Positions 6,746 to 47,600 of a DNA stretch of 64,000 nucleotides are shown one piece after another. This DNA is from Deltaproteobacteria bacterium. Its GTDB lineage: Bacteria; Myxococcota; Kuafuiibacteriia; Kuafuiibacteriales; Kuafuiibacteriaceae. The stretch is taken from positions 1 through 64,000 of the forward strand of contig WYAZ01000034.1 in the NCBI GenBank assembly GCA_011526105.1. Reading direction: 5' to 3'. A model generated the notes under the pieces. That model was given only the letters and a program-made list of their open reading frames with translations. It had not been told where the DNA came from and ran no database searches. Position numbers and translations under genes: made by a program. How positions within the stretch are numbered: the stretch's first letter is position 1; every line of letters starts with the position of its first letter.

Positions 6746-6761
6746 GGTCTCGAGCTCGGCT

Positions 6762-7031: not shown

Positions 7032-7098
7032 CGTCCGCTGAAAAATACCCAAGTCGAGATGTTTGCCTACGAAAAACCGACGAGCGAGGGTTTTACTG

Positions 7099-8145: not shown

Positions 8146-8157
8146 GCGACTCGCCGG

Positions 8158-9192: not shown

Positions 9193-9271
9193 ACTACCTT
9201 TGGGCGGCGCAAGAGCCAGACCGAAGAATGACGGTGACGCCCCGTGCGAACTCGGTTTCGCAGCCCGCGAT

Positions 9272-14321: not shown

Positions 14322-15581
<1,260 letters not shown>

Positions 15582-15668
15582 GGCGCGGGACCATAGCGCC
15601 CCTCCGGCCCGCGACCAAGCACGATTCGAGCTCTTTTCCCCCTCCTCTAGGCGGCGTAGCCTGGCTCC

Positions 15669-24085: not shown

Positions 24086-24128
24086 CGTCACTGCTCCGGA
24101 CCAGACCTAGAGGCCCAAGAGAACGTCT

Positions 24129-29584: not shown

Positions 29585-31174
29585 TCACTCCGGTTCGACC
29601 CAGGCCTCCATGGCCAGGCCTCGATTACCGCCGACCAGCAGCCGCGTTCCGTCAAAGGCGATAGAGGAGAGTCGAAGCCCGGCCCCAACCTCCAGTGCAC
29701 CGGCGCAACCATCGTCGAGACGGATCGTGAGCAGGTGTCCAACGCAGGCCTCCGCGATCAGAACGAGATAGGGCACCCCGCGAACCCTGATGTGCACGGC
29801 ATCGGGGACGTAGCCCCCGTAGGTGCGGTGTCCGCATGCGTCGACCCCTCCACAGTCGCCGGCGAACTCAGCCATCGAGTACGGAAGGTCTGCCCAGACG
29901 CCCGTGGGGAGCCTAGCTGAAATCGCGCCCAACCTCCCCACGACGAAGAGTTGTCCCGTGGCTCGGTCCACCATCTGGGCTCGGATCCGCACGAGCTCAC
30001 CGAGGAGTTCGACACTGGACTGAAGCCGTGAGCTGGCGTCGACCGACACGAGCGCGACCGCATCTTGGGGCCCGGAGATCATCAACCCGGGCAGTCCCCC
30101 CTGCACGCCCGTCACGCGCATCCGTCGCATCTCCAGATCTACGCCGATGCGCCCTGCCTGCTGATATCGGACCCCTGCTGCGGTGGCGGTGTAGACCGCG
30201 CTACGGACCCCCACCGCAACCACGGCGCGACTCGTAGGATCGAGGGCGACACCCATGAGTCCCTCCGACGTGATGGTCTCGGTCCGCACAAAGCGCAGAC
30301 CGTCCCCGTCGAGCGCAAAGCGGGCGATCTCCCCCTGCTGTATGGCGGCATCCTCCGGCGAAGTGGCGGAGACCAGAAGAAGAGGGTCTGAGGCGTGAGC
30401 GTCGTCGATCGAGAGTGAGGTCATGAGACCTGACTGCGACAGCCCGCTCATTCGATAACGCGCATCGGTGCGCAGCGGCGCCCCGCGCTCGAGGAGGTAG
30501 AGATACTTGGAGGTTCGGGCGAGCAGGCGATCACCACTCACCGGCTCGATCTGCCGGAACTCCTCGTAGACCTCGCTCGGGGAAGCGTCATCGATCAAGG
30601 ACGCTTTCACGCCGAAAGCCTGAAAGGATCCCAAAGGCGGCCCACACGAAGCGGTCTCCAAGGGGACCACGAGGGTCAGGTTCGACAGTCGGAGGCGCTC
30701 GCGGTCGTCGATGGGGGCGAGACCGTCGGCCTCGATCTTTTGGGCCGAGAAGCCAGCCGGGAGCGGAAGACGCAGGGTGCCGTCGCCGAGCCGTCCGCTG
30801 GAACACGACTCCGTTTCCGCGAGGAGTTCGAGCCCCGCGAGATCCGGCACAACATCGGACCGAAGGCTCGATAGTGAAGCCTTCGGGAGCGTGACGAGGT
30901 AGGTCGGCTGGGCGGCGGAGAGCGGCGTGCGAATCAGCACTCTGGCTTCTGAGTTCGAGTAGGGCCCTTCGATGACCGTCGTTCTCTCTTGGAACTGAAC
31001 CACGAAGGCGATCTCTTCGACCGGTGGATACGGGACGAAGACGACCGACTCGGAAGGACACGCGCATGAAAGGAGCACGCACAGCCTCCCCAGAGCGAGC
31101 TTGCATTCCCGGATCCACACAGGCGACGTCAGAGGCTCCGCACGGGTCGCTGCGACCTGCCTCAGTGCATCCAC
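29585..31174 (-). CDS. Hypothetical secreted protein / putative lipoprotein
   Basis: N-terminal hydrophobic stretch with a Cys-containing lipobox-like LSCAC. No recognisable catalytic motifs. The 5' end overlaps the stop of the upstream gene by 13 nt, so the start is uncertain. Confidence 0.45.
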   Translation of the reverse strand: MDALRQVAATRAEPLTSPVWIRECKLALGRLCVLLSCACPSESVVFVPYPPVEEIAFVVQFQERTTVIEGPYSNSEARVLIRTPLSAAQPTYLVTLPKASLSSLRSDVVPDLAGLELLAETESCSSGRLGDGTLRLPLPAGFSAQKIEADGLAPIDDRERLRLSNLTLVVPLETASCGPPLGSFQAFGVKASLIDDASPSEVYEEFRQIEPVSGDRLLARTSKYLYLLERGAPLRTDARYRMSGLSQSGLMTSLSIDDAHASDPLLLVSATSPEDAAIQQGEIARFALDGDGLRFVRTETITSEGLMGVALDPTSRAVVAVGVRSAVYTATAAGVRYQQAGRIGVDLEMRRMRVTGVQGGLPGLMISGPQDAVALVSVDASSRLQSSVELLGELVRIRAQMVDRATGQLFVVGRLGAISARLPTGVWADLPYSMAEFAGDCGGVDACGHRTYGGYVPDAVHIRVRGVPYLVLIAEACVGHLLTIRLDDGCAGALEVGAGLRLSSIAFDGTRLLVGGNRGLAMEAWVEPE

Positions 31175-32748
31175 TTCGACCTCGGGTGTCGCCGCCGGCC
31201 GACGAGGACCGCAGCGACAAACAGGAGCAGCCCTGGACTGAACGAGGTCCTTGCGCGGGTGGCGCCACAGCCGCAGCCCGATGTGAGCGCCTCACCTCCC
31301 GCGTCCGCCGCCAGCCCGGCGTCGGTCGTTGCGGCATCCATCGCAGCTCGATCATCGCGCCCGGCATCGGCGACGACCCCGCCATCGGCATGGTCGGCAT
31401 CGGCCTCACCGAAGTCTGCCGAACCTGCGTCGATGAGTCCCGCGTCCGGAAGCGGCGGAACCGACGTCCCGGTCGGCTTGAAGTCGGGCTCGATCATCCA
31501 CCCGGGCGCAGCGCCCGCGACAAAAGCGTACGCACCGATGTCCGCGACGCCATTGCGCGGGCGGCGGTCAAAGTCGTCGAGCGGTAAGTGAGTCGCCGCT
31601 CCGGCGGCTACGAGAGCACCGCCCTCGGCGGGATAGAGGTTGATGGGTGGCTGTCCCAAGTAGTGGCCTTGAACCAGATCCGCTAGGCTCGCGTTCGCGA
31701 AGCCGCTCGGCGCCGCACCGACGCCCGCGTTTCCCGCGAGGGTGATCATGCCCGGCGATCCCCCGGACACAAAGATCGCACGGCCATTCTCCGCGTAGAG
31801 CGCGTTGTTGGCCACGACCACCGTCCCGGTGTTGCCACGGATGCTGATCGCATCATTCGTGGAGGTCAAAATGGTGTTGTTCACCACGACGAGATTGGCA
31901 GGTGCCCCAGCCTGGTGCGGCTGCATCGCGATCCCGTCCGAGCCCGCGGAGAGGATGAGGTTGTTGCGAATGATCGCGTCCGCGGAAGACTGCACCCCGT
32001 GATCCCCGCAGTGCCAGAGCACGTTTCGCTCGATGATGTTCGGTCCACCGTTGCCCGCCGCGCTGTAGGTGAGGATGCAGGGGTAGTTGGTGTCATGGAT
32101 GACGTTGTCTCGGATGACGTTGTCGAAGCTGCCTTCCTTGAGTTCGATGCCATCCCCTTGCTCCACCCCTGCCGCGTTGGTGTGATGCACGTAGTTTCCT
32201 TCGATCACGCTGTCGCGGAGTCGGCAGCCATCGTTATTGCAGCCGAGGTACATGCCTTCGCCCGTGCCGCCGGTGTCGTGGATGTGATTGCGACGGATGA
32301 CGAGCGACTGGTAGACCGTGCCGGTGTCGTTGGCGCGCAGCGCCACGTCGGCAGTGTCGTGGATCTCGCAGTCTTCGATGGTGAGATAGCGAGCGGACAT
32401 GATCCGGATGCCGGCGGAACCACCGGAGAACTCGATGCCGCGCAGCTCGAGATACTCGCCGTTCTCAATCTCGACGATGTTGTGATCTGCGTTGGGCCGA
32501 TCGAGACGCGGTCGCTCTCCGGTCTTGGCGCGAATGACGATCGGCCGAGCGGCGGTCCCGACGAGATCGATGGCAAGCCTTCCCGCCAGGGTATAGGTGC
32601 CGCCGCGCAGCACCAGCTCGTCGCCGGGTTCCAGCGCCGCGATGGCCGCGCGCAGGTCGTCGCCGGGTCCAATCTCGGAACCGGCCGCCCAAACCGCGCC
32701 GGTCCAGGCAAACGAGAGCAAGAAGAAGAAGAAGAAGAAGCTTCGCAT
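31162..32748 (-). CDS. Secreted right-handed parallel beta-helix repeat protein with a C-terminal MYXO-CTERM-like sorting domain
   Basis: Signal peptide MRSFFFFFFLLSFAWTGAVWA. Repeated N/D/H-rich beta-helix rungs (IRRNHIHDTGG, VIEGNYVHHTN, IRDNVIHDTN, IIERNVLWHCGD, IIRNNLILS, VVVNNTILTS, VVANNALY). The C-terminus SGCGCGATRARTSFSPGLLLFVAAVLVGRRRHPRSK (Cys motif, TM, basic tail) resembles MYXO-CTERM. Confidence 0.75.
   Translation of the reverse strand: MRSFFFFFFLLSFAWTGAVWAAGSEIGPGDDLRAAIAALEPGDELVLRGGTYTLAGRLAIDLVGTAARPIVIRAKTGERPRLDRPNADHNIVEIENGEYLELRGIEFSGGSAGIRIMSARYLTIEDCEIHDTADVALRANDTGTVYQSLVIRRNHIHDTGGTGEGMYLGCNNDGCRLRDSVIEGNYVHHTNAAGVEQGDGIELKEGSFDNVIRDNVIHDTNYPCILTYSAAGNGGPNIIERNVLWHCGDHGVQSSADAIIRNNLILSAGSDGIAMQPHQAGAPANLVVVNNTILTSTNDAISIRGNTGTVVVANNALYAENGRAIFVSGGSPGMITLAGNAGVGAAPSGFANASLADLVQGHYLGQPPINLYPAEGGALVAAGAATHLPLDDFDRRPRNGVADIGAYAFVAGAAPGWMIEPDFKPTGTSVPPLPDAGLIDAGSADFGEADADHADGGVVADAGRDDRAAMDAATTDAGLAADAGGEALTSGCGCGATRARTSFSPGLLLFVAAVLVGRRRHPRSKWMH
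32720..32740. repeat. (AAG)7 trinucleotide microsatellite inside the signal-peptide coding region (encodes the poly-Phe FFFFFF on the minus strand)
   Basis: Read directly: aagaagaagaagaagaagaag at 32720-32740. Confidence 0.7.
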
Positions 32749-32884
32749 GACGCAGAATCTACACCAGCCCTCACTGTGGCGAGCAAGCGACCTCGGGTGG
32801 AATGCCCACCAGGTCGAGCCCGCCCAGACGAAATGCAGACCGCGCGCCGGTGTACTTCGAGATCGCTTGTGCTATCCGAAGCGC

Positions 32885-33760
32885 ATGGAGCTGGGCACGC
32901 GAGCCAAACCGGCATGGCGCGGTGCCGGGGTGTACGCGGCGGCTCTCTTGCCTTGCCTCGTCGCCGGCGTCCTTCGTGGGGGCCTGCCCCTCATCGCCCT
33001 CACGACGCTCGTGTCCGTGCTGACCGCGTTCCTCTTTGCGAAGCTGAGCAGCCGGCCTCGAATCCCCGGCGCTGGGCTGGCTGGGTTAATCTTCGCACTC
33101 ACGCTGCCGTCCGATACCCCGCTGCTGCAGGCCGCGGCCTCCATGGTGTTCGGACTCGTTGTCGCTCGCGAGATCTTCGGCAAAGTCGAGCGCAGCTTCG
33201 TCCACCCAGCCGTGCTCGCGCACGTGTTCCTGAGCCTCACCTGGCCGGGCGCACTCGCATCCGCGGCCCGATGGCTCCCACCGGACGGAGTCGTGCTCAC
33301 TCCCACGCTCGAGTCCATGCTGTTCACCTCGGCGGGCGGCGCCCTCGGCAACGCCTCCGCCCTCGCCTGCTTCATCGGCGCGGCAATCCTCCTCGTCTCG
33401 CGTCTCATCTCGTGGCGAGTGCTCGCGTCCATCCCCATCGGCGTGGCGGCCGGCATTGGACTCCTCGGACATCCGAGCGCCGCAGGACCGCTCTTCGTGT
33501 CGTCGCATCTTTTGCTGGGGGGTGCGCTGTTCGCGAGCGTGTTCCTCGCCGCTGACCCAGACAGCTCGCCGCGGGACCGCTCGGCGCAATGGTTCCACGG
33601 CTTCTTGGTGGGATTTCTCATCCTGCTTTTCCGAGTCACCGATCCATCCAGCCCCGACGGAGTCATCCCCGCGATCCTCATCGCGAGTGTGTTTGCGCCC
33701 CTGTTCGATCGAGCCGCGGTCGCCGGCCGGCGCGGCGTCGCCGGGGTGAGCCATGTCTGA
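32885..33760 (+). CDS. nqrB: Na+-translocating NADH:quinone oxidoreductase subunit B-like (NqrB/RnfD family); short form
   Basis: Homology blocks LIFALTLPSDTPLLQAAASMVFGLVVAREIFG, LAADPDSSP, LIASVFAPLFD match NqrB/RnfD. Only about 291 aa from the ATG at 32885 (an upstream in-frame TTG at 32867 is possible). The stop overlaps the nqrC start (ATGTCTGA). Confidence 0.75.
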   Translation: MELGTRAKPAWRGAGVYAAALLPCLVAGVLRGGLPLIALTTLVSVLTAFLFAKLSSRPRIPGAGLAGLIFALTLPSDTPLLQAAASMVFGLVVAREIFGKVERSFVHPAVLAHVFLSLTWPGALASAARWLPPDGVVLTPTLESMLFTSAGGALGNASALACFIGAAILLVSRLISWRVLASIPIGVAAGIGLLGHPSAAGPLFVSSHLLLGGALFASVFLAADPDSSPRDRSAQWFHGFLVGFLILLFRVTDPSSPDGVIPAILIASVFAPLFDRAAVAGRRGVAGVSHV

Positions 33761-34577
33761 GCACGCCACCACCGGCGCTTCAGGACGCGGTCCGCCGTCT
33801 CCGCGCAGCACGACCCTCCGCACGATCACGGTGACGCTCTTCGTGTGTCTCGCGTGTTCAATGCTGGTCTCCATCTCGACCGTGGTTCTGCGGCCCATCC
33901 AACGCGAGAACCAGAGACAGGCGCGCGAAGCTCAGATCGCCGCGATTTTGACCCGCGAGCCTGCGCTCCGCGAGTTGCTGGGCGACGTGAACACCGCCAC
34001 CCTCGAATCGCGCGTCGTCGAGCTCGTATCGGGGACGATCATGGAAGACATGGACGCCGCCGCGCTCGATCCGGTCCGCTCGGCGCGAGAGCCCGAATCG
34101 AGCCGAGAGCTCCCGGCCGAACGCGACCTTGCGCGCATCCAGCGCCAAGCGCGACACGTGGCCGTCACCTTCGTTCGACGCGAGGGGACGCTGCACGCCA
34201 TCGTGGTGCCAATCTACGGGCGCGGCTACGGCTCGATCATCCGAGGCTCGCTCGCGCTCGCGGGTGACGCCAACACGATCATCGGCCTCGCGATCAGCGA
34301 ACACGGTGAGACGCCGGGCATCGGCAGCGAGATCACCGAGCCCGAGTGGACCGGACTCTGGCCGGGCAAGAAGCTTCGAGACGACAAGGGCCAGCTGCGG
34401 ATTCACGTCGCACTCGATGAGACCAGCGCCGCAGCCGACGACGCCGAGTTTCACGTCGATGGCATCAGCGGCGCCACCAAGAGCTGCGACGGCGTAGGCA
34501 ACATGGTTCGGTTCTGGGTTGGCGAGGATGGGTTCGGACCGTTCTTAGGCCGCGTGGGAGGCGGAGAGATCCGATGA
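33753..34577 (+). CDS. nqrC: NADH:quinone oxidoreductase subunit C (FMN-binding)
   Basis: N-terminal TM. The FMN-attachment motif DGISGATKS (SGAT) is present. Confidence 0.8.
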   Translation: MSEHATTGASGRGPPSPRSTTLRTITVTLFVCLACSMLVSISTVVLRPIQRENQRQAREAQIAAILTREPALRELLGDVNTATLESRVVELVSGTIMEDMDAAALDPVRSAREPESSRELPAERDLARIQRQARHVAVTFVRREGTLHAIVVPIYGRGYGSIIRGSLALAGDANTIIGLAISEHGETPGIGSEITEPEWTGLWPGKKLRDDKGQLRIHVALDETSAAADDAEFHVDGISGATKSCDGVGNMVRFWVGEDGFGPFLGRVGGGEIR

Positions 34578-35197
34578 GTCGCTTCATCCAGACCCTCACG
34601 AGGCCCGTCCTCGAAGACAACCCCATCACAGTGCAGCTGCTGGGGCTCTGCTCCGCCCTCGCGGTCACCAAGAGCCTCGAGACCGCTTTCGCCATGAGCG
34701 CGGCGGTCGCCGCGGTGCTGGTGGGCAGCAACGCCGTCATCAGCCTGCTCCGAGGAGTCATCCCGCACCCCACGCGCCTCGTCGTCCAGATCACGATCAT
34801 CGCCTCGATGGTGATCGTCACCGACCAGCTCATCGCGGCCTTTGCCCCCGAGCTCAGCCGCCAGCTCTCCATCTTCGTGAGCCTCATCATCACGAACTGC
34901 ATCATCCTCGGGCGCGCCGAGGCCTTTGCGATGACGCATGGCGTGACCGAGAGCATCGCCGACGCCCTCGGCAATGCGCTCGGCTATCTCCTGCTCCTGA
35001 CTTGTGTCGGGGCCATCCGTGAGCTGCTGGGCCGGGGCGCGCTCTTCGGGCATCAGCTTCTGCCTTTGGCTCGAGAGGGCGGCTGGTTTCAGCCGCTCGA
35101 GATCTTGCACCTGCCCCCGGCCGGCTTCTTCCTCATCGCGCTCTTCATCGGCCTGTCGAGTGTCCTGCGGAATCGCAGCGCAAAGGCGGCGCCATGA
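34574..35197 (+). CDS. nqrD: NADH:quinone oxidoreductase subunit D
   Basis: Strong similarity to NqrD (LEDNPITVQLLGLCSALAVT...IITNCIILGRAEAFAM...). 4-nt overlap with nqrC. Confidence 0.85.
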   Translation: MSRFIQTLTRPVLEDNPITVQLLGLCSALAVTKSLETAFAMSAAVAAVLVGSNAVISLLRGVIPHPTRLVVQITIIASMVIVTDQLIAAFAPELSRQLSIFVSLIITNCIILGRAEAFAMTHGVTESIADALGNALGYLLLLTCVGAIRELLGRGALFGHQLLPLAREGGWFQPLEILHLPPAGFFLIALFIGLSSVLRNRSAKAAP

Positions 35198-35808
35198 TGA
35201 CGCTCTTCCTCGAGGCGGTGTTCGTCGAGAACCTCGCGCTCGCCTTCTTCCTCGGGATCTGCACGCTGCTCGGAGGCTCACGCCGGCTTTCCACCGCAGT
35301 CGGGCTGGGCATCGCGATCACGGTGGTCATGACCATCACGCTCCCGATCAACCACCTCATCCATCGCTTCCTTCTCGCGCCGGGCGCCTGGGCGTGGGCC
35401 GGCATGGCCGAGCTTGACCTCAGTCATCTGTCGCTCATCTGCTTCATCGGATCGATCGCCGCGATGGTGCAGATCCTCGAGATGGTCCTCGATCGCTTCT
35501 TTCCCGCCCTCGCCCGCGGCCTCGGGATCTTCTTGCCGCTCATCACGGTCAACTGCGCCATCCTCGGCGGCTCACTGTTCATGGTCGACCGGCACTACGA
35601 CCTCGGCCAAACGGTCGTGTATGCGGTCGGCAGCGGGGTCGGATGGGCCCTCGCGGTGGCCGCACTCGCCGCGATCCGTGAACGGGTCGACGGTGAGCAT
35701 CTCCCGGAGGGCTCGGCCTCGGATTCTGCCAGCCAGGCCCTCGTGTTTGCGGTGATTGGCATCATGTCGACGGCCTACATGGCCTTCTCCGGGGTGCGTC
35801 TGCCATGA
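35194..35808 (+). CDS. nqrE: NADH:quinone oxidoreductase subunit E
   Basis: FVENLALAFFLGICTLL...LPLITVNCAILGGSLF is NqrE/RnfA-like. 4-nt overlap on each side. Confidence 0.85.
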   Translation: MMTLFLEAVFVENLALAFFLGICTLLGGSRRLSTAVGLGIAITVVMTITLPINHLIHRFLLAPGAWAWAGMAELDLSHLSLICFIGSIAAMVQILEMVLDRFFPALARGLGIFLPLITVNCAILGGSLFMVDRHYDLGQTVVYAVGSGVGWALAVAALAAIRERVDGEHLPEGSASDSASQALVFAVIGIMSTAYMAFSGVRLP

Positions 35809-37028
35809 CCGAGGTCGTCATGACCGTGGTCCTCTTCAACGGGATCATCTTGGTGTTCACCGCGTTGATCCTGATCGCGCGCGCGCTCGTGGTGGGCACC
35901 GGCACCGCCCGGATCACGATCGACGGACGCGAGCCCTTCGAGACCGAGCTCGGACGCAAGCTCCACAACGTGCTCATGGATGCCGGCATCCCCATCGCCG
36001 CCGCCTGCGGCGGAAAGGGCACCTGCGGCTTGTGTCGCGTGCGAGTCAGCGGTGTGCTCGACCCGCCCCTGGCCACCGAGCTGGCGATCCTCGACGAACA
36101 CGCGCTCGCCCGAGGCCTTCGCCTCTCGTGCCAGATCACGACCCGCGGCGATCTCGAGGTCGGACTGCCCGAGGGCCTGCCCACCCACCAGGAGCTCGAG
36201 TGCCGCGTGCGTTCGTCGCGCAACCTGACCCCGCTCATCAAAGAGATCGTGCTCGAGCTCCCCGAGGGCGCCTCCTTCCAGTTTCGCGCCGGGAGCTTCG
36301 TCCAGATCAACTGCCCGCCGCATCAAACCGTCCTTGGACGAGTGCCGGTCGACGAGTCGTGCCGCGCCGCCTGGGATGCGCTGGGGATCGATCACCTCGT
36401 CGCGAACTGCCCGCAGCCCACGAGCCGCGCCTACTCGATGGCGAATCACCCGGGTGAGGGGCACTTCATCATGTTGCTGGTTCGCCTCGCGCTGCCCCCG
36501 CCGGGCGTGCCACCAAACACGCCGCCCGGCCTCGTCTCGAGCTATCTGTTCAGCCTCGAACCAGGCCGAACCGTGCGGCTCAGCGGACCCTTCGGCCACT
36601 TCGTCGCGACCGACACCGACAAGGAGATGATCTTCGTGGGCGGCGGCGTGGGCATGGCCCCCATGCGGGCCCACGTCTTCGAGCAGCTCGAGTTTCTCCA
36701 TAGCCAGCGAAAGATCAGCTTCTGGTACGGAGCCCGCTCGGAACGCGAGCTGATCTACGCGGAAGAGTTCGAGGCCCTCGCGAAGAAACACCCCAACTTC
36801 ACATGGTCCGTCGCGCTGTCGGAGCCCAGCCCCGACGACGAATGGCACGGCGCAGTCGGCTTCATCCACGATCACCTGCACCGCTCCTATCTCGCGGGCC
36901 ATGCGGCACCGTCGGACTGTGAGTACTATCTATGCGGACCGCCTTTGATGGTGCGCGCGGTGGTGGCGATGCTCGAGCGCTTGGGCGTGAGCCGAAGCTC
37001 GGTGTTCTATGATGACTTTGGCGGCTGA
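35805..37028 (+). CDS. nqrF: NADH:quinone oxidoreductase subunit F (2Fe-2S ferredoxin + FAD/NAD(P)-binding reductase)
   Basis: N-terminal TM. Ferredoxin Cys cluster CGGKGTCGLCRV...C, RAYSMAN (FAD) and GGGVGMAPMRAH (NAD) motifs. This subunit is diagnostic of Nqr as opposed to Rnf. Confidence 0.85.
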   Translation: MTEVVMTVVLFNGIILVFTALILIARALVVGTGTARITIDGREPFETELGRKLHNVLMDAGIPIAAACGGKGTCGLCRVRVSGVLDPPLATELAILDEHALARGLRLSCQITTRGDLEVGLPEGLPTHQELECRVRSSRNLTPLIKEIVLELPEGASFQFRAGSFVQINCPPHQTVLGRVPVDESCRAAWDALGIDHLVANCPQPTSRAYSMANHPGEGHFIMLLVRLALPPPGVPPNTPPGLVSSYLFSLEPGRTVRLSGPFGHFVATDTDKEMIFVGGGVGMAPMRAHVFEQLEFLHSQRKISFWYGARSERELIYAEEFEALAKKHPNFTWSVALSEPSPDDEWHGAVGFIHDHLHRSYLAGHAAPSDCEYYLCGPPLMVRAVVAMLERLGVSRSSVFYDDFGG

Positions 37029-37049
37029 GGCCCAAGGAGCAGAAGACTC

Positions 37050-37445
37050 ATGATCCAAACGGCGCGCGTAGAGGAGTTCATGGCGAGAGAGCTCGTGGTG
37101 GTCAGGCCCAACACGGAGATCCACGAAGCGGTCGCACTCATGCTCGATCGGCGCGTCTCCGGACTGCCGGTCGTGGACGAGGGCGGTCACCTCGTCGGCA
37201 TCCTGACCGAGCAAGACTGTTTGAGAGTCGCCTTTCAGAGCCACTATCATCAGGCGCCGGCGGGCACGGTGGCGAACGCCATGACCTCGAATCCCACGAC
37301 CATCGATGCCCAAGACGACATCATGACCGCGATCGACGTCTTCCTTCGGGCCTCGTTTCGGAGACTCCCGGTGCTCGCCGGGGGCACGCTGGTCGGCGTG
37401 CTCAGCCGCCGCGATGCGCTCCGGGTGCTCAGGACGCAGGCTTGA
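37050..37445 (+). CDS. CBS-pair domain protein
   Basis: Two CBS motifs (GLPVVDEGGHLVGILTEQD and RLPVLAGGTLVGVLSRRD). Confidence 0.75.
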   Translation: MIQTARVEEFMARELVVVRPNTEIHEAVALMLDRRVSGLPVVDEGGHLVGILTEQDCLRVAFQSHYHQAPAGTVANAMTSNPTTIDAQDDIMTAIDVFLRASFRRLPVLAGGTLVGVLSRRDALRVLRTQA

Positions 37446-37761
37446 GGGACATGAGCCACTTCGAGAGCGCGTTCAACTCGGCTTCTTCGCCCCGAAACTT
37501 CGGCGGATGCAGCTTGTCCTCGAGCTTCTCTTTCTTCTCGAGATAACGAACGAGCCAATCGAGCTTTCGCTTCGTCGAGAGTCCAGAGAGATCCGAGATC
37601 TTCATCTCGGCGCTGTCCTTCTGGAGCGCCACGATGCCTTCGCTCTTGATGCTGTGGCAGACGTTGCACTTCTTCGCGAGGAAGACCTTCTTCCCGTCTG
37701 GCTCTTCGCCCGCCGCGGCCAACGAGAGGGAGAGGCTGAGAATGTGGCTCAAAAGGGTCAT
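37429..37761 (-). CDS. Small secreted mono-haem c-type cytochrome
   Basis: The ORF is trimmed to the ATG at 37759-37761 (MTLLSHILSLSLSLAAAGEE signal). A single CxxCH motif (CNVCH). Overlaps the 3' end of the CBS gene convergently by 17 nt. Confidence 0.6.
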   Translation of the reverse strand: MTLLSHILSLSLSLAAAGEEPDGKKVFLAKKCNVCHSIKSEGIVALQKDSAEMKISDLSGLSTKRKLDWLVRYLEKKEKLEDKLHPPKFRGEEAELNALSKWLMSLKPAS

Positions 37762-37944
37762 CGCTCGCTCCGATCCGGGCCTCGTTCGGCCCGAGCTGTT
37801 CGTCCTCACCGCGACGCGCGATTGAGACGGTACTTCGTCGAACTATCTTTCGGGGGGATCGTAGGCAAGCCGAACCGAAAAAGGGATACCCGTCAGACCC
37901 CGCGAGATTTGCCGCCGTCCGCACGTTCCGGCATCATTCGCGCG

Positions 37945-38865
37945 GTGGTGCCGTTCGCCGCATCCTGGGTCGTCGCTGCGATCGCCGCATCGAGCCCCGC
38001 GGACACTGGCACCCCGATCATCATCTTGCTGCCCGCCGAGAGCCAGACGGCTTCGGTTGCGGCGGCCTATCTCCAGAACGAGCTCGAGCTCGTGCTTCAG
38101 CTCGAGACCGCGTCTTTGGATGAACCTCGAGCGCTGCTGGCGCGGGCGCGCTCGAAGTGGCCCTCGGCCCTGATCGTGCTTCTGCACCCGGACCGCAACG
38201 AGACCTGGATGTCTCGCCCGCATGAGGCGGAGCCGGTGGTGCGCCGCCTCAATCATCCGCCCGGGAGCTCCGCGTATCCCCTCGCGATCGCGGCCGCGGA
38301 GCTCGTTCGAAACGCCACCGCGCCCAAACCCTTGCCGCCCAAACCCGAGCTGGAGCTCGCGTTCTCGGTGGGGCTCGGCATCTCGGGGTCTCCGGGCGTC
38401 GAGCGAACCTTGGCGCAGCCGGTCTTCGGTCTGGAGTTGCGCCTCGGAACGCACGGGCTTTGGAGCTCGGTCGGGCTCCGGGTCCGCGGGCCTTCTTCCT
38501 CGAACACCGACGTCGGCGGCAACATCTTCGTGGACTACAGCCGCACCGACCTCGCGCTGCAGCTCGGCTTCGGTCCAGAGCTCGACCGCTGGCACCTCGC
38601 CCTGCTCGTCGAGGCCGGACTGAGCGTGGTCTCGGTCGATGCGCAGCGGGGGGCCGAACTTCTCGGCTCGAACCGCCGTCTGCCCTTCTGGCTCGGCTTG
38701 GGCGCGCAGATACGCCGGCCGCTCTTCTCAGGCTTGGGTGCGGTGGTGTGTGTGGAGCTGATCCGCGTGCTCAGCCCAGCGGACTTTCGCGGCGGGCCGG
38801 ACATCGTCTTTTCGGAGGGGGATTGGCGACTTCAGTCGCAAGCGGCCCTGGAGTGGGTGCTGTGA
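37945..38865 (+). CDS. Hypothetical secreted protein (beta-rich)
   Basis: The long ORF 37414..38865 is antisense to the cytochrome gene at its 5' end. In-frame GTGs at 37945 and 37948 give VVPFAASWVVAAIAASSPADTG (signal-like). The start is uncertain. Confidence 0.4.
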   Translation: MVPFAASWVVAAIAASSPADTGTPIIILLPAESQTASVAAAYLQNELELVLQLETASLDEPRALLARARSKWPSALIVLLHPDRNETWMSRPHEAEPVVRRLNHPPGSSAYPLAIAAAELVRNATAPKPLPPKPELELAFSVGLGISGSPGVERTLAQPVFGLELRLGTHGLWSSVGLRVRGPSSSNTDVGGNIFVDYSRTDLALQLGFGPELDRWHLALLVEAGLSVVSVDAQRGAELLGSNRRLPFWLGLGAQIRRPLFSGLGAVVCVELIRVLSPADFRGGPDIVFSEGDWRLQSQAALEWVL

Positions 38866-38941
38866 ACGCCATCGGTCTTTCTCACTTTCTGGGGATGCGG
38901 CGACTGACTGCAGGTGGGATCCTTCCCCTTCGAGATCCGGC

Positions 38942-39547
38942 GTGACGGCAGAAGTGATGTCCCAGGACGCACCGACTCCCGCCAGGCCTTCGCTGGTCGC
39001 ACGGGCCAAGGCCGGCGATCCCGCGGCTCTAGCCGAGCTGGTGCGGACGGAAAGCCCCAAAGTGGCGGGTCTGCTCGTGCGGCTTCTCGGTCCCCGGCAG
39101 GATCTCGAGGACCTGGTTCAGATCGTGTTCCTCGAGCTCTGCCGAGCGCTGCCCGGCTTTCGCGGCGACAGCAGCATCTCGACCTTCATCGGGGGAATCG
39201 CGGTTCAGGTCGCGCGACGCGCGATGCGCCCGACCGCCTGGCAACGACGCCGCGCCGAGTGGCCCAAGACGGAACCCGCCTCTTTGGAGTCCGACCCCGA
39301 GGACCAGGTGAGTCTCCGCGATCAGATTCGGCGGCTCCACGAACTGCTCGAAGAAGTACCGCCCAAGAAACGAGTCGCCTTCCTTCTTTGGGCGGTGGAT
39401 GGCCGCACCGCCGACGAGGTCGCGACCCTCACGAAGTGCAGCCTCCCCACCGCTCGCAAGCGCATCTACGACGTGCGGCGACAGCTCCGCGACCGGGCCC
39501 AGGGCGACCCGTTGCTCGCGCACTGGGTCGGTGAGGAGGTCCCATGA
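38942..39547 (+). CDS. RNA polymerase sigma-70 factor, ECF subfamily
   Basis: Region 2 (DLVQIVFLEL...) and region 4 (ADEVATLTKCSLPTARKRIYDVRRQLR). 4-nt overlap with the downstream anti-sigma gene. Confidence 0.85.
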   Translation: MTAEVMSQDAPTPARPSLVARAKAGDPAALAELVRTESPKVAGLLVRLLGPRQDLEDLVQIVFLELCRALPGFRGDSSISTFIGGIAVQVARRAMRPTAWQRRRAEWPKTEPASLESDPEDQVSLRDQIRRLHELLEEVPPKKRVAFLLWAVDGRTADEVATLTKCSLPTARKRIYDVRRQLRDRAQGDPLLAHWVGEEVP

Positions 39548-40761
39548 TCGACCCCAAAGAACAGCGGCGCGACCGCGAGTTCGCCGCCTTCGGCAACGAC
39601 GCGCTCAGCTCGTCCGCGATCGATCGGCTCGCGGAACGCATCGCCGCCGACGGCCCTCGGGTCGTCCGCCGCGCAAAGTTCGTGCGCACCGCGGTGCGTG
39701 TCGGCCCGGTGGTCGCGCTCCTCCTCTTTGCGTTGATCTGGGGAACACGCCCTGGTCCGCCGCCGGCGGCTCCGGCTTTGGCCGACAGCACCCGAGCGTG
39801 CGAGCGCTGGTCTCCGATATCGACCTCGGCGATCTCGTCCGGCCGCATCGACCTTGGGCACCTCGGCGAAGGACGAAGCTCCGAAGAAGCCAGGATCGAC
39901 CTTCGGGTGGCAGAACGCTGCCGCACCGTCCTCCACCTCGCGCAGGGCTCGGTGGCCATTCACGCGAAGGACCTCGGCGGCGGAACGCTCATCGTCGAGA
40001 CGCCGCAGGGCCGAGCTCGAGTCGTGGGAACGATCTTCTCGGTCTCGCAGCGCGGTGAGGTCTTTGCGGTCGAAGTCGTCGAGGGCACGGTCGAAGTCGA
40101 AGCTCACGAAGAGCAAATCTTGCTGCGGGCCGGAGAACGCACCGCCCTCGCCGAAGGCCGACTGAAGACGCGAGCCATGACAGAGACCGAGCGCGAGGCG
40201 CTTCTGATCGGAGTTCGAGACGGCCTAGCTCAGGCCGACGAATCGGAAGCTCTGTTCGATGGGGCGGAGCTCGACGCGCCCTCGGAGTCTCCCGAAACCG
40301 CGCGCCCCCGGGTGAGGCCCAACCGCCGCAACGCCGAACGGAAGACGAAAGTCGACGACCACGCACCCGCGGTGTCCCCCCCCCCGACCTCCGAGAGCGC
40401 GGAGCAGCTCGTCGCGCGGGCCGCCCAGCTCAAGACGAAGGCGCCTGATGCGGCACGGGCCCTGTACCTTCGGGCGGGCTCGATGTCCGGACCGACGGCA
40501 GAGGCGGCCTGGATCGCGCTCGCGCGGCTCGAGCTCTCTCGTGCACGTCCCGCATCCGCGGTCGACGCGCTCAATGATCGCCAGCGACGTTTCCCTTCGG
40601 GCGGCATGGTCCTCGAGGCCGCTGGCATCGAGCTCGAGGCTCTGCACGCCCTCGGCAAGTCGGAGGCGGTGCGGCGCCTCGCTCGCGAGATCGTCGATCG
40701 CTGGCCCGAATCTCAGCAGGCCAAGAAAGCCGAGAGCCTGCTCGACCGGAAGCCTCGATGA
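39544..40761 (+). CDS. Anti-sigma factor, FecR-domain, single-pass membrane protein
   Basis: TM VGPVVALLLFALIWG. FecR-like beta region (GGGTLIVETPQGRARVVGTIFSVSQ). C-terminal TPR-like helical region. Confidence 0.7.
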   Translation: MIDPKEQRRDREFAAFGNDALSSSAIDRLAERIAADGPRVVRRAKFVRTAVRVGPVVALLLFALIWGTRPGPPPAAPALADSTRACERWSPISTSAISSGRIDLGHLGEGRSSEEARIDLRVAERCRTVLHLAQGSVAIHAKDLGGGTLIVETPQGRARVVGTIFSVSQRGEVFAVEVVEGTVEVEAHEEQILLRAGERTALAEGRLKTRAMTETEREALLIGVRDGLAQADESEALFDGAELDAPSESPETARPRVRPNRRNAERKTKVDDHAPAVSPPPTSESAEQLVARAAQLKTKAPDAARALYLRAGSMSGPTAEAAWIALARLELSRARPASAVDALNDRQRRFPSGGMVLEAAGIELEALHALGKSEAVRRLAREIVDRWPESQQAKKAESLLDRKPR

Positions 40762-42719
40762 TCTCAGCCCGACTTTGGGGCCGAGCGTGCCTCGGCCTGC
40801 TGTTGCTCGTCGCGTGTGACCGACGCGAGATCCTGTTGTTCGACGCGAGCGGTCCCCCCGAGCTGGCCGGGATTCGACGCGTCGAAGTCCGGCCCTCGAT
40901 GGCCACCGTCGTCGCCGACGGCCGGACACGGCCCGCCGATCTCGCGTTTCAGGCGATCGGCATCTTCGAGGACGGAGAGCGCGACATCACCTCGCTCACG
41001 ACGTGGAGGCTCTCCCGCCCCGAGCTGGGCACGGTCGGCGTCGGCGTGTTCCGCGCACACGGCACGATCGGTGGGGACACCATGATCGGCGCGCGAGTGG
41101 GAGACCTCGATGCAGAGGCGTCGATCCAGGTGCAGCTCTCGGTGACGGACCTCGATCCTTCGGCGCCCGGTGACGCGATGGCCTTCTTCCCCGAGAACAT
41201 CTCGGGTGATGCCCTGCGCAGCAGCCCCACCATCATCTATCCGAGCGACAGCACCACGTTCCCCAAAAACGTCTCGAACACGCTCTTTCAGTGGCACGAC
41301 TCGGCCGGCTCGGATCTGTTTGAGGTTCGCTTCGACAGCGCGGTGGCGAGCATCCGGCACTATACCAAGGACCGAAGTTTCGCTCTCGATGACCTGGCCC
41401 GAGGGTGGCTCCCCCATACACACTCAGGTCGATCGCTCACCATGACGGTTCGAAGCGTCTCCACGACCTCCACCGGCACCGTCTATCGCTCGGACGCCAT
41501 TGAGCTTCACTATTCCGCTTCAGACGTGAGCGGCGCGATCTACTACTGGTCGACGGGTGCTCGCGGCATCATGCGCGCCTCACTCGATCGCGAGGCCGCG
41601 GTGGCCTTCTACCCTGGACCCGAGAGCGACCGCTGCGCGTCGTGCCACACCGTCTCTCGCGACGGACGGCGCCTCGCGGCGGCGTATGACGGCGAGAAGC
41701 TCCGCGTCGTTTCGATCCCCGAGAATCAACTCATCGAGCCTCCCTCCGGGGCCTCCGAGGCGGAGTTCGGCTGGGGCAGCTTCGACCCGAGCGGCGAGCG
41801 GCTCATCATCGCGCACAAGGGCCGCCTGAGCATGCTCACCGTGGGGTCCGGGGCACGCGCCGACGTCCCGCTCCCTTCGGGCTTTTATGGGACCCATCCC
41901 GACTGGTCGCCCGATGGTCGGCAGATCGCGCTCGCGGTGGCGGACAAGTCGACGAACAACAAAGACACTAAAGGGACGAGCCTCGCGCGCTTGCTCGTGC
42001 AGCCCGATGGGTCCATCTCCGGCCTCGAGGTGCTCGAGCCCAGCCTGGCCGATGACGACACCCTCGTCTTTCCGAGCCACTCGCCGGACGGTCGCTGGAT
42101 CGCGTTTGTTCGCGCGCGCGGCAAGTCCAAGGACAACCGTGAGGCCGAGATCTATCTCATCCGCTCGGACGGAACTGGACCCACCATCTTGCTCGAGGCG
42201 CTCAACCGAAGGGTGGGGCCTGAAAGCGGGGTGCGTTCGATCAGCAACTCGATGCCCACGTGGGGCCCGACCCTCGGCACCGGGATGGACTGGCTCGCGT
42301 TCTCGTCCACACGCGACTACGGCGCCGTGATCGTCGATACGAAGCGCGATCAGCTCTGGAGTGCGGTCATCGATCTCTCCAAAGCTGCGAGCGGCGTCGA
42401 CCCCAGCGGCCCCGCCTACTGGCTGCCATTTCAACAGACTGAGGAAGGTAATCATCGCGCGTTCTGGACATCGAACCCTAACGACGAATGCCCCTCGACC
42501 ATCGAGCTCTGCAACGGAGTCGACGACGACTGCGACGGTGTGGTCGACGAGGACTGCTGTACGTCCGTGGAGGAGATCTGCGGCGATGGCATCGACAATG
42601 ACTGCGACCTCGCCCGCGACGAAGGCTGTGGCTGCACCGACACCGAAGACTGCACCAACCGCCTCGACGACGACTGCGACGGACTCATCGACCTGGAAGA
42701 CGAGGACTGTGGGGTATGA
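40758..42719 (+). CDS. Lipoprotein with a TolB-like beta-propeller region and C-terminal MopE-like Cys-rich (putative metal-binding) repeats
   Basis: Lipobox LLLVAC. Repeats SPDGRQIA / SPDGRWIAF typical of TolB/WD40-like propellers. C-terminal CNGVDDDCDGVVDEDC, CGDGIDNDCDLARDEGC and CTNRLDDDCDGLIDLEDEDC. 4-nt overlaps place it in the sigma/anti-sigma operon. Confidence 0.7.
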   Translation: MISARLWGRACLGLLLLVACDRREILLFDASGPPELAGIRRVEVRPSMATVVADGRTRPADLAFQAIGIFEDGERDITSLTTWRLSRPELGTVGVGVFRAHGTIGGDTMIGARVGDLDAEASIQVQLSVTDLDPSAPGDAMAFFPENISGDALRSSPTIIYPSDSTTFPKNVSNTLFQWHDSAGSDLFEVRFDSAVASIRHYTKDRSFALDDLARGWLPHTHSGRSLTMTVRSVSTTSTGTVYRSDAIELHYSASDVSGAIYYWSTGARGIMRASLDREAAVAFYPGPESDRCASCHTVSRDGRRLAAAYDGEKLRVVSIPENQLIEPPSGASEAEFGWGSFDPSGERLIIAHKGRLSMLTVGSGARADVPLPSGFYGTHPDWSPDGRQIALAVADKSTNNKDTKGTSLARLLVQPDGSISGLEVLEPSLADDDTLVFPSHSPDGRWIAFVRARGKSKDNREAEIYLIRSDGTGPTILLEALNRRVGPESGVRSISNSMPTWGPTLGTGMDWLAFSSTRDYGAVIVDTKRDQLWSAVIDLSKAASGVDPSGPAYWLPFQQTEEGNHRAFWTSNPNDECPSTIELCNGVDDDCDGVVDEDCCTSVEEICGDGIDNDCDLARDEGCGCTDTEDCTNRLDDDCDGLIDLEDEDCGV

Positions 42720-45665: not shown

Positions 45666-47600
45666 ATGTCACTGCTCGCCCTCGACGACATCACTCTGCA
45701 TCTGGGTCAGCGAACGCTGTTCGAGCAGCTCACGCTCGCGGTGGAGCGCGGGGACCGGCTTGGGCTCGTGGGCCCCAACGGCAGCGGCAAGAGCACCCTG
45801 CTTCGGGTGGTCGTCAACCAGATCGCGCCCGATAGCGGAAGGATCGTCTTCTCGAAAGGCGCGCGGCTCGGATACCTGCCTCAGGAGCTCTCCGAGCTCG
45901 GAGAGGGCACCTTGCTCGAGCAAGTGATCGCCGCCGCGCCCGGCCGCATCGACGTTGAAGCGCGGCTCACCGAGATCGAAGAGGCGCTCATGGTGAGCAC
46001 CGAGGAGTCCGAGCAACTCGATCTCGCGGAAGAGCTGGCCGATCTGCATCGGCGGCTCGTGGACCTCGACCTCGACTACGCTCCGCACAAGGCGCAGACC
46101 ATCCTCGCCGGTCTCGGCTTCAAGACCACCGACTTCGACCGACCGGTGAGCGAGTTCTCGGGAGGCTGGCGCATGCGCGCTGCGCTCGCCGGGCTTCTAT
46201 TCCAGAAGCCCGATGTGCTGCTGCTCGACGAGCCAACCAACCACCTCGACATGCCCTCCGTCGCGTGGCTCAACAAGTTCCTCGCCACCTACTCGGAGGC
46301 CTTTGTCCTCATCTGTCACGACCGTGAGTTCCTCAACCGGCACGTGAACCGCATCGCCAGCTTTGAGGTCGAGGGCCTCAGAACCTACAAAGGCAACTAC
46401 GACGCCTACGTCGAGCAGCGCCGGCTCGAGCTCGAGCTCCTCGAGAACAAGGTCAAGAAGGACGACGCGAAGAAGCGCGAGCTCGAAGCCTTCGTCACCC
46501 GCTTCAAGGCCAAAGCCTCAAAGGCGCGGCAGGCCCAGAGCAAAGCGAAGCAGATCGAGCGCATGCAGGAGGACATGGTCGACATCCCCAGGCCTCGGCA
46601 GACGATCTCCATCCGTTTCCCGCCCACCGAACGCACCGGAGACAACGTCCTCCGTCTGTCGGATCTCGGCTTCTCCTACGGCAACCACCGGGTCTTCTCG
46701 GGCGCGAACCTGCTCGTACGCCGCGGAGACAAGGTCGCCATCGTGGGCGTCAACGGCGCCGGCAAGACGACGCTGCTCAAGATCATCGCCGGCGAACTCA
46801 CGAACTACGAGGGCAAGATAGAGCCCGGCAGTCGCGTGAAGATGAGCTACTTCGCGCAGCACCACGCCGAGGTGCTCGACCGGAGCAATACCGTGCTCGA
46901 GGAAGTGGGCCACGCCGCTCCCAAGAAGGGGCAGACCGAGCTCCGCGGGCTGCTCGGCGCGTTCCTCTTCTCGGGTGACGACGTCGAAAAGCCCATCGGG
47001 GTGCTCTCCGGCGGCGAGCGGGCGCGTGTCGCGCTCGCCAAGCTCCTCGTGGACCCAGGCAATCTGCTCCTCCTCGACGAACCGACCAACCACTTGGACA
47101 CCGAGTCGGCGCAGCGGCTCACGGACTCACTCGAGGGCTATGACGGTACGCTCATCTTCGTGTCGCACAGCTTGGACTTTGCGAAGCGGCTCTCCACCCG
47201 GGTGTGGGACGTGCACGACGGAAAGGTCGAGACCTATCCCGGCTCGCTTGCCGACTACATCGAGCAGTACAGCGCAGTGGATGAGGCGCCGAAGGCCTCG
47301 GTGGCCCCTAAGGCGCCGGTCAAAGCTCAGGTCCAGAGCCGGGAGCAGAACAAGAAGGAGCAGGCCGAGCAGCGAAAGCAACGGGCCGGCTTAGAGAAGG
47401 CGGTCCTGGAGCTCGAAGGCGAGATCGCCCGGCTCGAGGCTGAGCAAGGCGAGCTCGAAGCGAGACTCGCGCATCCCAGTACGCAGCAGGATCCGGAAGA
47501 GGCGCGCTCGGTCGCCCAGCGTTACGAAGCGGTCCGAAGCCAGGCCAGCATGATGCTCGAGCGGTGGGAGATGATCTCGGCAGAGCTGGCCGAGTTGTAG
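45666..47600 (+). CDS. ABC-F family ATPase (two ABC cassettes with a C-terminal coiled coil; EttA/Uup/YheS-like translation-associated factor)
   Basis: Two Walker A motifs (GPNGSGKST and GVNGAGKTT). Two LSGG signatures (FSGGWRMR and LSGGERAR). Inter-domain linker and C-terminal charged helix. No TM domain. Confidence 0.9.
   Translation: MSLLALDDITLHLGQRTLFEQLTLAVERGDRLGLVGPNGSGKSTLLRVVVNQIAPDSGRIVFSKGARLGYLPQELSELGEGTLLEQVIAAAPGRIDVEARLTEIEEALMVSTEESEQLDLAEELADLHRRLVDLDLDYAPHKAQTILAGLGFKTTDFDRPVSEFSGGWRMRAALAGLLFQKPDVLLLDEPTNHLDMPSVAWLNKFLATYSEAFVLICHDREFLNRHVNRIASFEVEGLRTYKGNYDAYVEQRRLELELLENKVKKDDAKKRELEAFVTRFKAKASKARQAQSKAKQIERMQEDMVDIPRPRQTISIRFPPTERTGDNVLRLSDLGFSYGNHRVFSGANLLVRRGDKVAIVGVNGAGKTTLLKIIAGELTNYEGKIEPGSRVKMSYFAQHHAEVLDRSNTVLEEVGHAAPKKGQTELRGLLGAFLFSGDDVEKPIGVLSGGERARVALAKLLVDPGNLLLLDEPTNHLDTESAQRLTDSLEGYDGTLIFVSHSLDFAKRLSTRVWDVHDGKVETYPGSLADYIEQYSAVDEAPKASVAPKAPVKAQVQSREQNKKEQAEQRKQRAGLEKAVLELEGEIARLEAEQGELEARLAHPSTQQDPEEARSVAQRYEAVRSQASMMLERWEMISAELAEL

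Follow-up and report, generated by a model that had tools for sequence, protein, structure and literature searches.

In the canonical Nqr complex, electrons travel outward from NqrF through the cluster of NqrD/NqrE to the flavin mononucleotide (FMN) of NqrC, and then back through the FMN and riboflavin of NqrB to quinone, near NqrA. A review describes the membrane-core cofactors of Nqr and Rnf as strictly conserved and leaves the cofactor-free NqrA without an assigned function (PMC12174285), and an older review states that removal of NqrA prevents assembly of the complex (PMC4014512). Here we describe an operon, nqrB'CDEF (positions 32885-37028), in which nqrA is missing and NqrB is shortened (NqrB'), and which lies in a stretch of 64,000 nt of contig WYAZ01000034.1 (GCA_011526105.1, Deltaproteobacteria bacterium), hereafter the window. 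The operon very probably encodes a truly NqrA-less, derived Nqr that is also devoid of the FMN of NqrB. The clade to which it belongs contradicts both reviews, since in it the complex has been kept by selection without NqrA and without the flavin and quinone sites of NqrB. We found no description of an NqrA-less Nqr, or of a partnership between Nqr and a cytochrome c, in the literature searched.

The nqrB'CDEF operon

A first-pass annotation had called five translationally coupled genes, nqrB to nqrF, and we confirmed its coordinates, its 4-8 nt overlaps (8, 4, 4 and 4 nt between successive genes) and its calls for subunits C to F. The genes of the operon and its surroundings are the following.

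32885-33760, plus strand: nqrB', 291-aa membrane subunit of the NqrB/RnfD family (PF03116, 170.8 bits)
33753-34577, plus strand: nqrC, periplasmic FMN subunit (TIGR01938, 174.7 bits, cut-off 144; 154.8 bits to 7xk3_C)
34574-35197, plus strand: nqrD, membrane subunit (NF006777, 250.1 bits, cut-off 235)
35194-35808, plus strand: nqrE, membrane subunit (TIGR01940, 250.6 bits, cut-off 247.55)
35805-37028, plus strand: nqrF, NADH-oxidising subunit with FAD and 2Fe-2S (TIGR01941, 449.7 bits, cut-off 295; 410 bits over the full length to 8a1t_F)
37050-37445, plus strand: stand-alone CBS-pair protein, 131 aa (two PF00571 domains, 102.8 bits)
37429-37761, minus strand: exported mono-haem class I cytochrome c, 110 aa, haem site CNVCH (PF00034, 30.2 bits, cut-off 21.3)
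31162-32748, minus strand: divergent beta-helix/NosD-like protein (weak match to a MYXO-CTERM-anchored family)

NqrC, NqrD, NqrE and NqrF all exceeded their NCBIfam equivalog cut-offs. NqrB' is a complete PF03116 (NqrB/RnfD) domain despite scoring below the cut-offs of the NqrB equivalogs (164.7 bits against 414 for NF003756, and 158.1 bits against 349.9 for TIGR01937).

The window was analysed together with its relatives, which are uncultured organisms whose functions are read here from sequence and synteny alone. Seven NqrA-less lineages were distinguished: that of the window (L001-L004), L005, L006 (with L018), L007 (with L013 and L017), L009 (with L010 and L014), L012 and L019. L023, which is 90% identical to the window, was counted apart from them, which makes eight loci in total, and six NqrA-containing loci (L011, L015, L016, L020, L021 and L022) were used for comparison. 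Coverage extended to 64 kb of the window's genome and to 10 kb on either side of the operons of the relatives.

NqrA is missing together with its contact sites

The loss of NqrA is taken to be real because three independent signals agree: nqrA is missing at all eight of these loci, the anchor for NqrA on NqrB is deleted, and the docking site on NqrF is erased. As previously noted, no nqrA lies upstream of nqrB' in the window, where the divergent beta-helix gene stands instead. More generally, tblastn searches with three NqrA, three ApbE and four NqrM-like sequences, together with Pfam scans of 20 further large open reading frames (ORFs), revealed no homologue of NqrA, RnfC, ApbE or NqrM in the 64-kb window; the best NqrM/ApbE match, at 46502-46603 (E = 0.018), was noise inside an ABC-F ATPase gene. 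The 136-nt gap between the beta-helix gene and nqrB' (32749-32884) was found to hide no nqrA, and a longer NqrB' N-terminus was likewise rejected, an upstream in-frame reading having to overlap the start of the divergent gene. In-frame stops occur 24 codons upstream of the nqrB' start in L023 and within 10-30 codons in other lineages, and therefore no long N-terminus is hidden there. Nor was NqrA or RnfC found in the relatives among the eight loci, within 10 kb on either side of the operon.

In Vibrio cholerae, a C-terminal loop of NqrA intertwines with residues Phe34-Leu54 of NqrB and holds NqrA on the membrane, and NqrF docks NqrA through K100, R104 and an acidic patch formed by E368, E371, D372, E397 and E399 (PMC9325719). 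The Phe34-Leu54 stretch is deleted in NqrB'. In the NqrF of the window, the docking residues are changed to K100E, R104A, E368A, E371S, E397S and E399S. None of the seven NqrA-less lineages has a basic residue at position 100 or 104, only one has an acidic residue at position 371, and in 6 of the 7 the 393-401 segment carries a net charge of +2, that is, the charge is flipped. The docking charges are largely kept in the NqrA-containing relatives, with E371 present in 6/6 and a basic residue at position 100 in 5/6.

The NqrF of L020, a Myxococcota metagenome-assembled genome (MAG; GCA_041389405.1), is intermediate and eroded at the docking positions. In this locus nqrA is split into two ORFs (8501-9884), and the C-terminal half of nqrC (11061-11924) is a frameshifted Arg-rich tail without SGAT, which may reflect an assembly error or decay.

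NqrB' has lost its flavin and quinone sites

The earlier length estimate for NqrB' of about 290 aa was accurate (291 aa against 415 in V. cholerae), but the missing part is not the single N-terminal block of about 100 aa that had been described; about 120 aa are gone from three places, namely some 47 aa of the cytoplasmic tail, some 47 aa of the loop between transmembrane helices TM1 and TM2, and some 17 aa after the FMN loop. The helix TM1 itself has been kept. NqrB' was aligned with HMMER to the 415-aa NqrB of V. cholerae, which provides the residue numbering, and the residues were audited in 13 clade members; their roles are known from structures and mutagenesis (PMC10643135, PMC9293633).

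The segment FTSAGGALG, proposed in the first-pass annotation as the equivalent of the FMN site, turned out to lie elsewhere: its residues 147-155 align to V. cholerae 265-273, next to Glu274. The accompanying claim that no threonine occupies the FMN site was correct, as V. cholerae DGYSGAT (D230-T236) aligns to DGVVLTP (D134-P140) of NqrB' and Thr236 corresponds to Pro140. A [ST]GA[ST] motif, strict or relaxed, was found nowhere in NqrB', nor in 11 of its 12 clade relatives. The Thr236 motif was missing in all 13 clade members (Pro140 or a gap), and in P0018/L019 the whole flavin loop is deleted.

The sites for quinone and riboflavin have fared similarly. Any replacement of G141 of NqrB is stated to block quinone (PMC10643135, PMC9293633), and in the clade this residue has become V, F, L, A, S or I, with F159 changed to A, F160 variable and the N-terminal helices missing; in the window, the changes are G141V, F159A and F160G, the N-terminal 47 or so residues are absent, and the quinone pocket is filled in. 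Among the riboflavin ligands T162, N200, N203 and D346, the window NqrB' has A, S, H and D, so that one in four is kept. N200 is replaced by S or T and N203 by H in 13/13 clade members, T162 is replaced by A (by S or C in two), and D346 is present in most members and missing from three. In V. cholerae, riboflavin is lost from double mutants in which a change of N200 or N203 is combined with one of D346 (PMC9293633). W143, E144 and E274 are lost across the clade, E157 is lost, and D52 falls within a deleted region; the acidic residues among these, D52, E144, E157 and E274, have been connected with Na+.

Other positions have not changed. All 13 NqrB' sequences keep E192, R199, H330, R372, D397 and the two phenylalanines of the gate, F338/F342, and all but one keep R296; the pocket motif ERSFVHPAVLAH is invariant in the nine close relatives of NqrB'. 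An AlphaFold2 model of NqrB' (pLDDT 83.5, pTM 0.85) retained the NqrB/RnfD fold and gave TM-scores of 0.77-0.80 to NqrB and RnfD. When the window genes were compared with those of L023, dN/dS was 0.22 for nqrB', 0.18 for nqrC, 0.04 for nqrD, 0.10 for nqrE and 0.15 for nqrF. NqrB' is thus under purifying selection, and because it is still selected it probably persists as a scaffold or docking partner of NqrC and NqrD/NqrE. We also observed clade-specific histidines in NqrB' (H107, H113 and H238), for which a role in haem binding was considered and is not claimed.

NqrC, NqrD, NqrE and NqrF keep their cofactor sites

The cofactor motifs of NqrC, NqrD, NqrE and NqrF are invariant throughout the clade. 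NqrC carries an intact predicted covalent-FMN site: VDGISGAT aligns to VDGLSGAT of 7xk3_C (the Thr225 site) and is conserved in all clade loci, and the retained flavinylation site reported earlier was indeed found in the window (VDGISGATKS). The 2Fe-2S cysteines of NqrD (Cys29/Cys112) and NqrE (Cys26/Cys120) are present, within the kept motifs LGLCSALAV and IITNCIILGRAEAF of NqrD and FFLGICTLLG and ITVNCAILGG of NqrE, and these four intramembrane cysteines are conserved in the window and in all its relatives. NqrF, already recognised by its 2Fe-2S and FAD/NAD domains, keeps the four cysteines and the RAYS FAD motif when aligned to 8a1t_F. With these residues kept, the outward half (NqrF, NqrD/NqrE and NqrC) is predicted to be intact. 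The return half, through NqrB to quinone at the face between NqrA and NqrB, is dismantled.

The clade is rare and descends from NqrA-containing Nqr

A word-indexed search for relatives covered 5.8 billion proteins, and an exhaustive hidden Markov model (HMM) search covered 1.84 billion cluster representatives. NqrB' has nine close relatives (287-328 aa, 48-89% identity), after which there is a jump to canonical NqrB of 403 aa at about 29-31%. The NqrB' clade is rare, because the exhaustive HMM search gave only about six representatives above 210 bits; scans of metagenomes and genomes with a clade profile gave 3 and 5 loci, mostly duplicates of known ones. The lineages come from Myxococcota-type MAGs and metagenome contigs, and they are diverse, with identities among the seven of 41-54% for NqrB' and 59-67% for NqrF.

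In a neighbour-joining tree of 902 ungapped concatenated NqrC-F columns (200 bootstraps, few taxa, no Rnf outgroup), the NqrA-less clade was monophyletic with 100% bootstrap support and had the NqrA-containing L020 and L022 as its sister group (96%); the operons of two Rhodospirillaceae MAGs came next outward, followed by canonical operons. This tree places the clade within NqrA-containing Nqr. Moreover, each subunit compared gave a better score with V. cholerae Nqr than with Rnf (123/73 bits for B, 155/29 for C, 204/154 for D and 202/124 for E). Because the clade nests inside NqrA-containing Nqr and its subunits score higher against Nqr, NqrB'CDEF is a secondary reduction of Nqr, neither an Rnf hybrid nor an ancestral intermediate. 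Of the readings offered before, that of a reduced Nqr is therefore the one upheld: this is a monophyletic, conserved and selected five-subunit form of Nqr.

The order of the losses can be read from L022, which contains NqrA (1998-8208) and has a 356-aa NqrB already devoid of SGAT, G141, F159, T162, N200 and N203. Since L022 keeps NqrA, as well as the NqrF docking patch, and its NqrB sites are already gone, erosion of the NqrB cofactor sites seems to have come before the loss of NqrA. As NqrA vanishes only where the quinone-reducing half has already been dismantled, a role for NqrA as the partner of that half can be proposed, and this role is testable. In the two Rhodospirillaceae MAGs, L015 (6511-7665) and L016 (9761-10954), the Nqr has six subunits, and its NqrB has DAFSEPT in place of D-x-x-SGAT, with the Thr kept and Gly-Ala replaced.

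Conserved partner genes

The common layout of the clade is nqrB'CDEF, a small Cys-rich ORF (not in every lineage), the CBS gene and a convergent cytochrome c gene. The first-pass annotation was silent on the last two, which are conserved partners: the convergent cytochrome c occurs in 7/7 NqrA-less lineages and the CBS gene in 6/7. The gene upstream of the operon differs by lineage (beta-helix, Usp, hypothetical protein, ApbE, SDR and others).

In the window, the cytochrome c and CBS genes overlap by 17 nt at their 3' ends. The cytochrome c has a CxxCH haem site, a hydrophobic N-terminal signal and a Cytochrom_C domain. No such cytochrome c was found at the six NqrA-containing loci, and no other gene is at once confined to the NqrA-less form and present throughout it. 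A word-indexed search for its homologues matched its own cluster only and is uninformative on the distribution of the family. Its best solved match, cytochrome c-551, was weak (E = 0.05). A motif HP[PAT][KR], conserved in 8 loci, aligns to HPP of 1fi3, presumably the M61H mutant of cytochrome c-551, at the Met61 axial-ligand position, where Pseudomonas c551 has its sixth haem ligand, and this suggests a His/His-ligated cytochrome of low potential.

The CBS gene comes after nqrF (or apbE/nqrM), and this holds not only for the NqrA-less clade but for four NqrA-containing relatives as well, two of them the Rhodospirillaceae MAGs:

L015, 12204-12692: CBS gene
L016, about 15540-15911: CBS gene
L020, 14469-14855: CBS gene
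L022, 7822-8208: CBS gene

The CBS protein thus looks like a lineage-wide accessory or regulator of Nqr, possibly a nucleotide sensor; a CBS-pair neighbour of Nqr was not found described in the literature searched.

Small ORFs of 49-68 aa, with one transmembrane helix and a Cys cluster, were detected in four loci, in the position of nqrM in canonical operons:

L005, 16149-16355: small Cys-rich ORF, after ApbE
L007, 14153-14302: small Cys-rich ORF, between nqrF and CBS
L009, 14292-14450: small Cys-rich ORF, between nqrF and CBS
L022, 7635-7820: small Cys-rich ORF

None of the four matched Pfam NqrM, and we regard them as NqrM-like candidates. The window has no such ORF, with 21 nt between nqrF and the CBS gene. 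ApbE adjoins the operon in L005 and L007, and adjacent ApbE and NqrM-like ORFs are consistent with a flavinylated NqrC and a cluster in NqrD/NqrE.

A proposed route from NADH to the periplasm

The route that we propose would begin with NADH reducing the FAD and 2Fe-2S centre of NqrF, from which electrons would pass to the membrane 2Fe-2S cluster of NqrD/NqrE and on to the covalent FMN on periplasmic NqrC. As the outward half is intact and the inward half dismantled, the simplest reading is that they would exit at the periplasmic face, from the flavin of NqrC. Their acceptor would most likely be the small exported cytochrome c adjoining every NqrA-less operon, and the enzyme would then be an NADH:cytochrome c oxidoreductase bypassing the quinone pool. 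Donation from RnfG to a co-transcribed cytochrome c has been proposed for the Rnf of Methanosarcina acetivorans (PMC4023990). From motifs and gene order, we judge the case for this full mechanism, in which electrons pass from the NqrC flavin to the neighbouring cytochrome c, to be evenly balanced. Only tentatively do we extend it to a one-way "half-Nqr", an NADH:cytochrome c oxidoreductase with its own dedicated low-potential cytochrome c that might still pump Na+ through NqrD/NqrE.

Whether pumping would continue depends on which published Na+ pathway is right. In one model Na+ passes through NqrB, with acidic residues at entry and exit and opening by reduced FMN of NqrB (PMC10643135); a second model assigns the path to the 2Fe-2S cluster of RnfA/RnfE (NqrE/NqrD), without involvement of RnfD (PMC11889175). 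The clade has lost the acidic residues of the NqrB channel and its FMN trigger, with the Phe gate kept, and has kept all the residues of the NqrD/NqrE model that were checked: R68, L104, N108 and E116 of NqrD align to R67, L103, N107 and E115 of Acetobacterium woodii RnfE, which are implicated in Na+ binding at the membrane cluster (PMC11889175). The clade is therefore a natural mutant for this dispute, as the presence or absence of pumping would discriminate between the two models.

Several points weigh against the proposed route to cytochrome c. What links the cytochrome c to the complex is synteny only, and its gene is convergent and therefore not co-transcribed with the operon. All clade members may share one phylum, so that part of the synteny could be ancestry, though the genes outside the module differ. 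In L022 the NqrB sites are gone and NqrA remains, and no cytochrome c lies on the 9.5-kb contig of this locus; therefore the loss of the flavin site and the gain of cytochrome c are not strictly coupled. The drop in potential between NADH and a c-type cytochrome would be very large for one coupling site. The pocket of NqrB' might still bind a cofactor, given that ERSFVHPAVLAH, D346 (in most members) and F338/F342 are kept. Finally, the search of this genome for nqrA and apbE spans the 64 kb of the window.

Other readings of the same data

A complex without NqrA could still be a quinone reductase, in which NqrB' binds one or two non-covalent flavins and has a remodelled site for the reduction of menaquinone; in that case the cytochrome c would either be a neighbour without any relation to the complex or act downstream of it. 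Myxococcota use menaquinone, and therefore their quinone site may well differ from the one that binds ubiquinone in Vibrio. The invariance of ERSFVHPAVLAH in the clade, the retention of R372 and D397 besides D346 and F338/F342, and the purifying selection on NqrB' all speak for this reading. Against it stand a flavin loop some 17-20 residues shorter, and fully deleted in P0018/L019, the loss of G141, F159 and the N-terminal helices of the quinone site, the replacement of T162, N200 and N203, and the loss of riboflavin in the V. cholerae double mutants mentioned above. On balance we find it rather unlikely.

It is also unlikely, a degree more so, that electrons leave at the NqrC flavin for another acceptor, such as a multihaem or extracellular electron-transfer protein or a periplasmic reductase. 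A large Big_2 protein with faint MtrC/cytochrome c7 matches lies downstream in L006, and a Paired_CXXCH cytochrome with an MtrB/PioB porin lies downstream in the related L020 (16085-18805), which hints at a link with extracellular electron transfer; unidirectional NQR/RNF-like systems have been proposed before (PMC8238504). These neighbours, however, are not conserved in the clade, in contrast to the mono-haem cytochrome c, found in 7/7 lineages.

We consider it improbable that the operon belongs to an ordinary six-subunit Na+-NQR with nqrA encoded elsewhere, as reported for Chlamydia and suggested in the first-pass annotation. The extent of the genome surveyed (64 kb here and 10 kb on either side in the relatives) leaves room for an unlinked gene, and NqrA is the most variable subunit (PMC4014512). 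Such a gene would, however, have to be missing from all eight loci (the seven lineages and L023), whose upstream genes are unrelated, and its product would meet an NqrB' without the Phe34-Leu54 anchor and without the FMN and quinone sites needed by a normal enzyme, and an NqrF whose dock is erased or charge-inverted in 7/7 NqrA-less lineages and kept in NqrA-containing relatives.

An Rnf/Nqr hybrid or ancestral intermediate, also raised earlier, is highly improbable. NqrB' is RnfD-like in length, and its target-normalised TM-score is 0.71-0.77 to RnfD against about 0.6 to NqrB. Nevertheless, the subunit scores and the nesting of the clade both favour Nqr, NqrF is present, RnfB polyferredoxin and RnfC were not found at the locus, and NqrB' lacks the PHVRD-type N-terminal motif found in most aligned NqrB relatives, a motif also present in RnfD.

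That the operon is decaying and non-functional is scarcely credible, since, set against the in-frame stop in nqrF of L023 and the split nqrA and frameshifted nqrC of L020, the window and the other lineages have intact ORFs with translational coupling, dN/dS values lie at 0.04-0.22, and none of the cofactor ligands of NqrC-F varies. The L023 stop (about 6461-7700, VAL*EPSP) may stem from a sequencing error or mark a pseudogene at the level of the strain.

If the proposed exit at the NqrC flavin is true, half-Nqr would be a new respiratory entry module and a natural knock-out of NqrA, of the FMN of NqrB, of riboflavin and of the proposed NqrB ion channel, with a candidate new electron route from NADH to periplasmic cytochrome c.

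Other features of the window

An Rfam scan of 31000-39000 found no riboswitch and no other RNA family, and a promoter and terminator scan of the 136-nt gap gave nothing useful. On the plus strand at 32722-32742, adjoining the shared promoter region, a (GAA)7 run forms an in-frame triplet repeat; it accounts for the Phe6 stretch of the signal peptide (MRSFFFFFFLLSF) with which the divergent beta-helix/NosD-like protein, probably MYXO-CTERM-anchored, is made. Just downstream of the module (38942-42719, plus strand) lie genes for an extracytoplasmic function (ECF) sigma factor, for an anti-sigma protein resembling FecR and for a PD40 protein of 653 aa that has a Cys-rich repeat and a faint MopE copper-binding match; these are kept solely in the window's own lineage. 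The genes at 18782-24106 (minus strand), for a 1767-aa protein with DUF3686, AAA and DUF7902 domains (precomputed annotation of L001) and then a 682-aa protein without matches, appear unrelated to the Nqr finding.

Comparison with known systems

With the NqrABCDEF of V. cholerae, the clade shares orthologous NqrC-F (155-410 bits to the solved chains), the gene order B-C-D-E-F, translational coupling, the FAD/NADH/2Fe-2S equipment of NqrF, the four-Cys 2Fe-2S site of NqrD/NqrE and the SGAT of NqrC. It differs in having no NqrA and no NqrA-binding patch on NqrF, in conserving cytochrome c and the CBS protein as neighbours, and in an NqrB' of 291 instead of 415 aa that lacks Thr236/SGAT, G141, F159, T162, N200, N203, E144, E157, E274 and the N-terminal helices. 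Chlamydia-type Nqr likewise has an nqrA that does not adjoin nqrB, whereas here NqrB is trimmed of the NqrA anchor and NqrF has no NqrA contacts. Chlamydial NqrB is a long form; NCBIfam NF002181, which we take to represent it, describes a long NqrB of 503 positions, that is, longer and not trimmed.

Rnf (RnfABCDGE) has the same core, with RnfD, RnfG, RnfE and RnfA corresponding to NqrB, NqrC, NqrD and NqrE; NqrB' resembles RnfD in length and NqrD keeps the equivalents of RnfE R67, L103, N107 and E115. Electrons enter Rnf through RnfB and the present complex through NqrF, there is no RnfC here, and RnfD carries covalent FMN and riboflavin, whereas NqrB' lacks the known motifs for either. In the Rnf of M. 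acetivorans with MA0658, too, an outward flavin subunit has been proposed to reduce a c-type cytochrome encoded with the complex (PMC4023990). That Rnf has six subunits, including RnfC and RnfD, takes electrons from ferredoxin and delivers them to methanophenazine by way of a multi-haem cytochrome co-transcribed with it; in the present clade, the donor would be NADH, the cytochrome is mono-haem and convergently encoded, and two cofactor sites and one subunit are missing.

The NQR/RNF-like systems of Meheust et al. (2021, PMC8238504) embody the same idea of one-way transfer from NAD(P)H to an extracytosolic flavin, but there a single protein fuses the PF03116 membrane domain to PF00175 (NqrF-type NAD-binding), while in the present clade these domains lie on separate proteins, NqrB' and NqrF, and the path through NqrD, NqrE, NqrC and NqrF is retained. 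The rule used in that work, by which the presence of NqrF means NQR, would file the NqrA-less clade as ordinary NQR, and rules of this kind hide functionally different enzymes. What is new in the clade is its set of subunits and cofactors, built from known parts by known descent, and probably also its acceptor.

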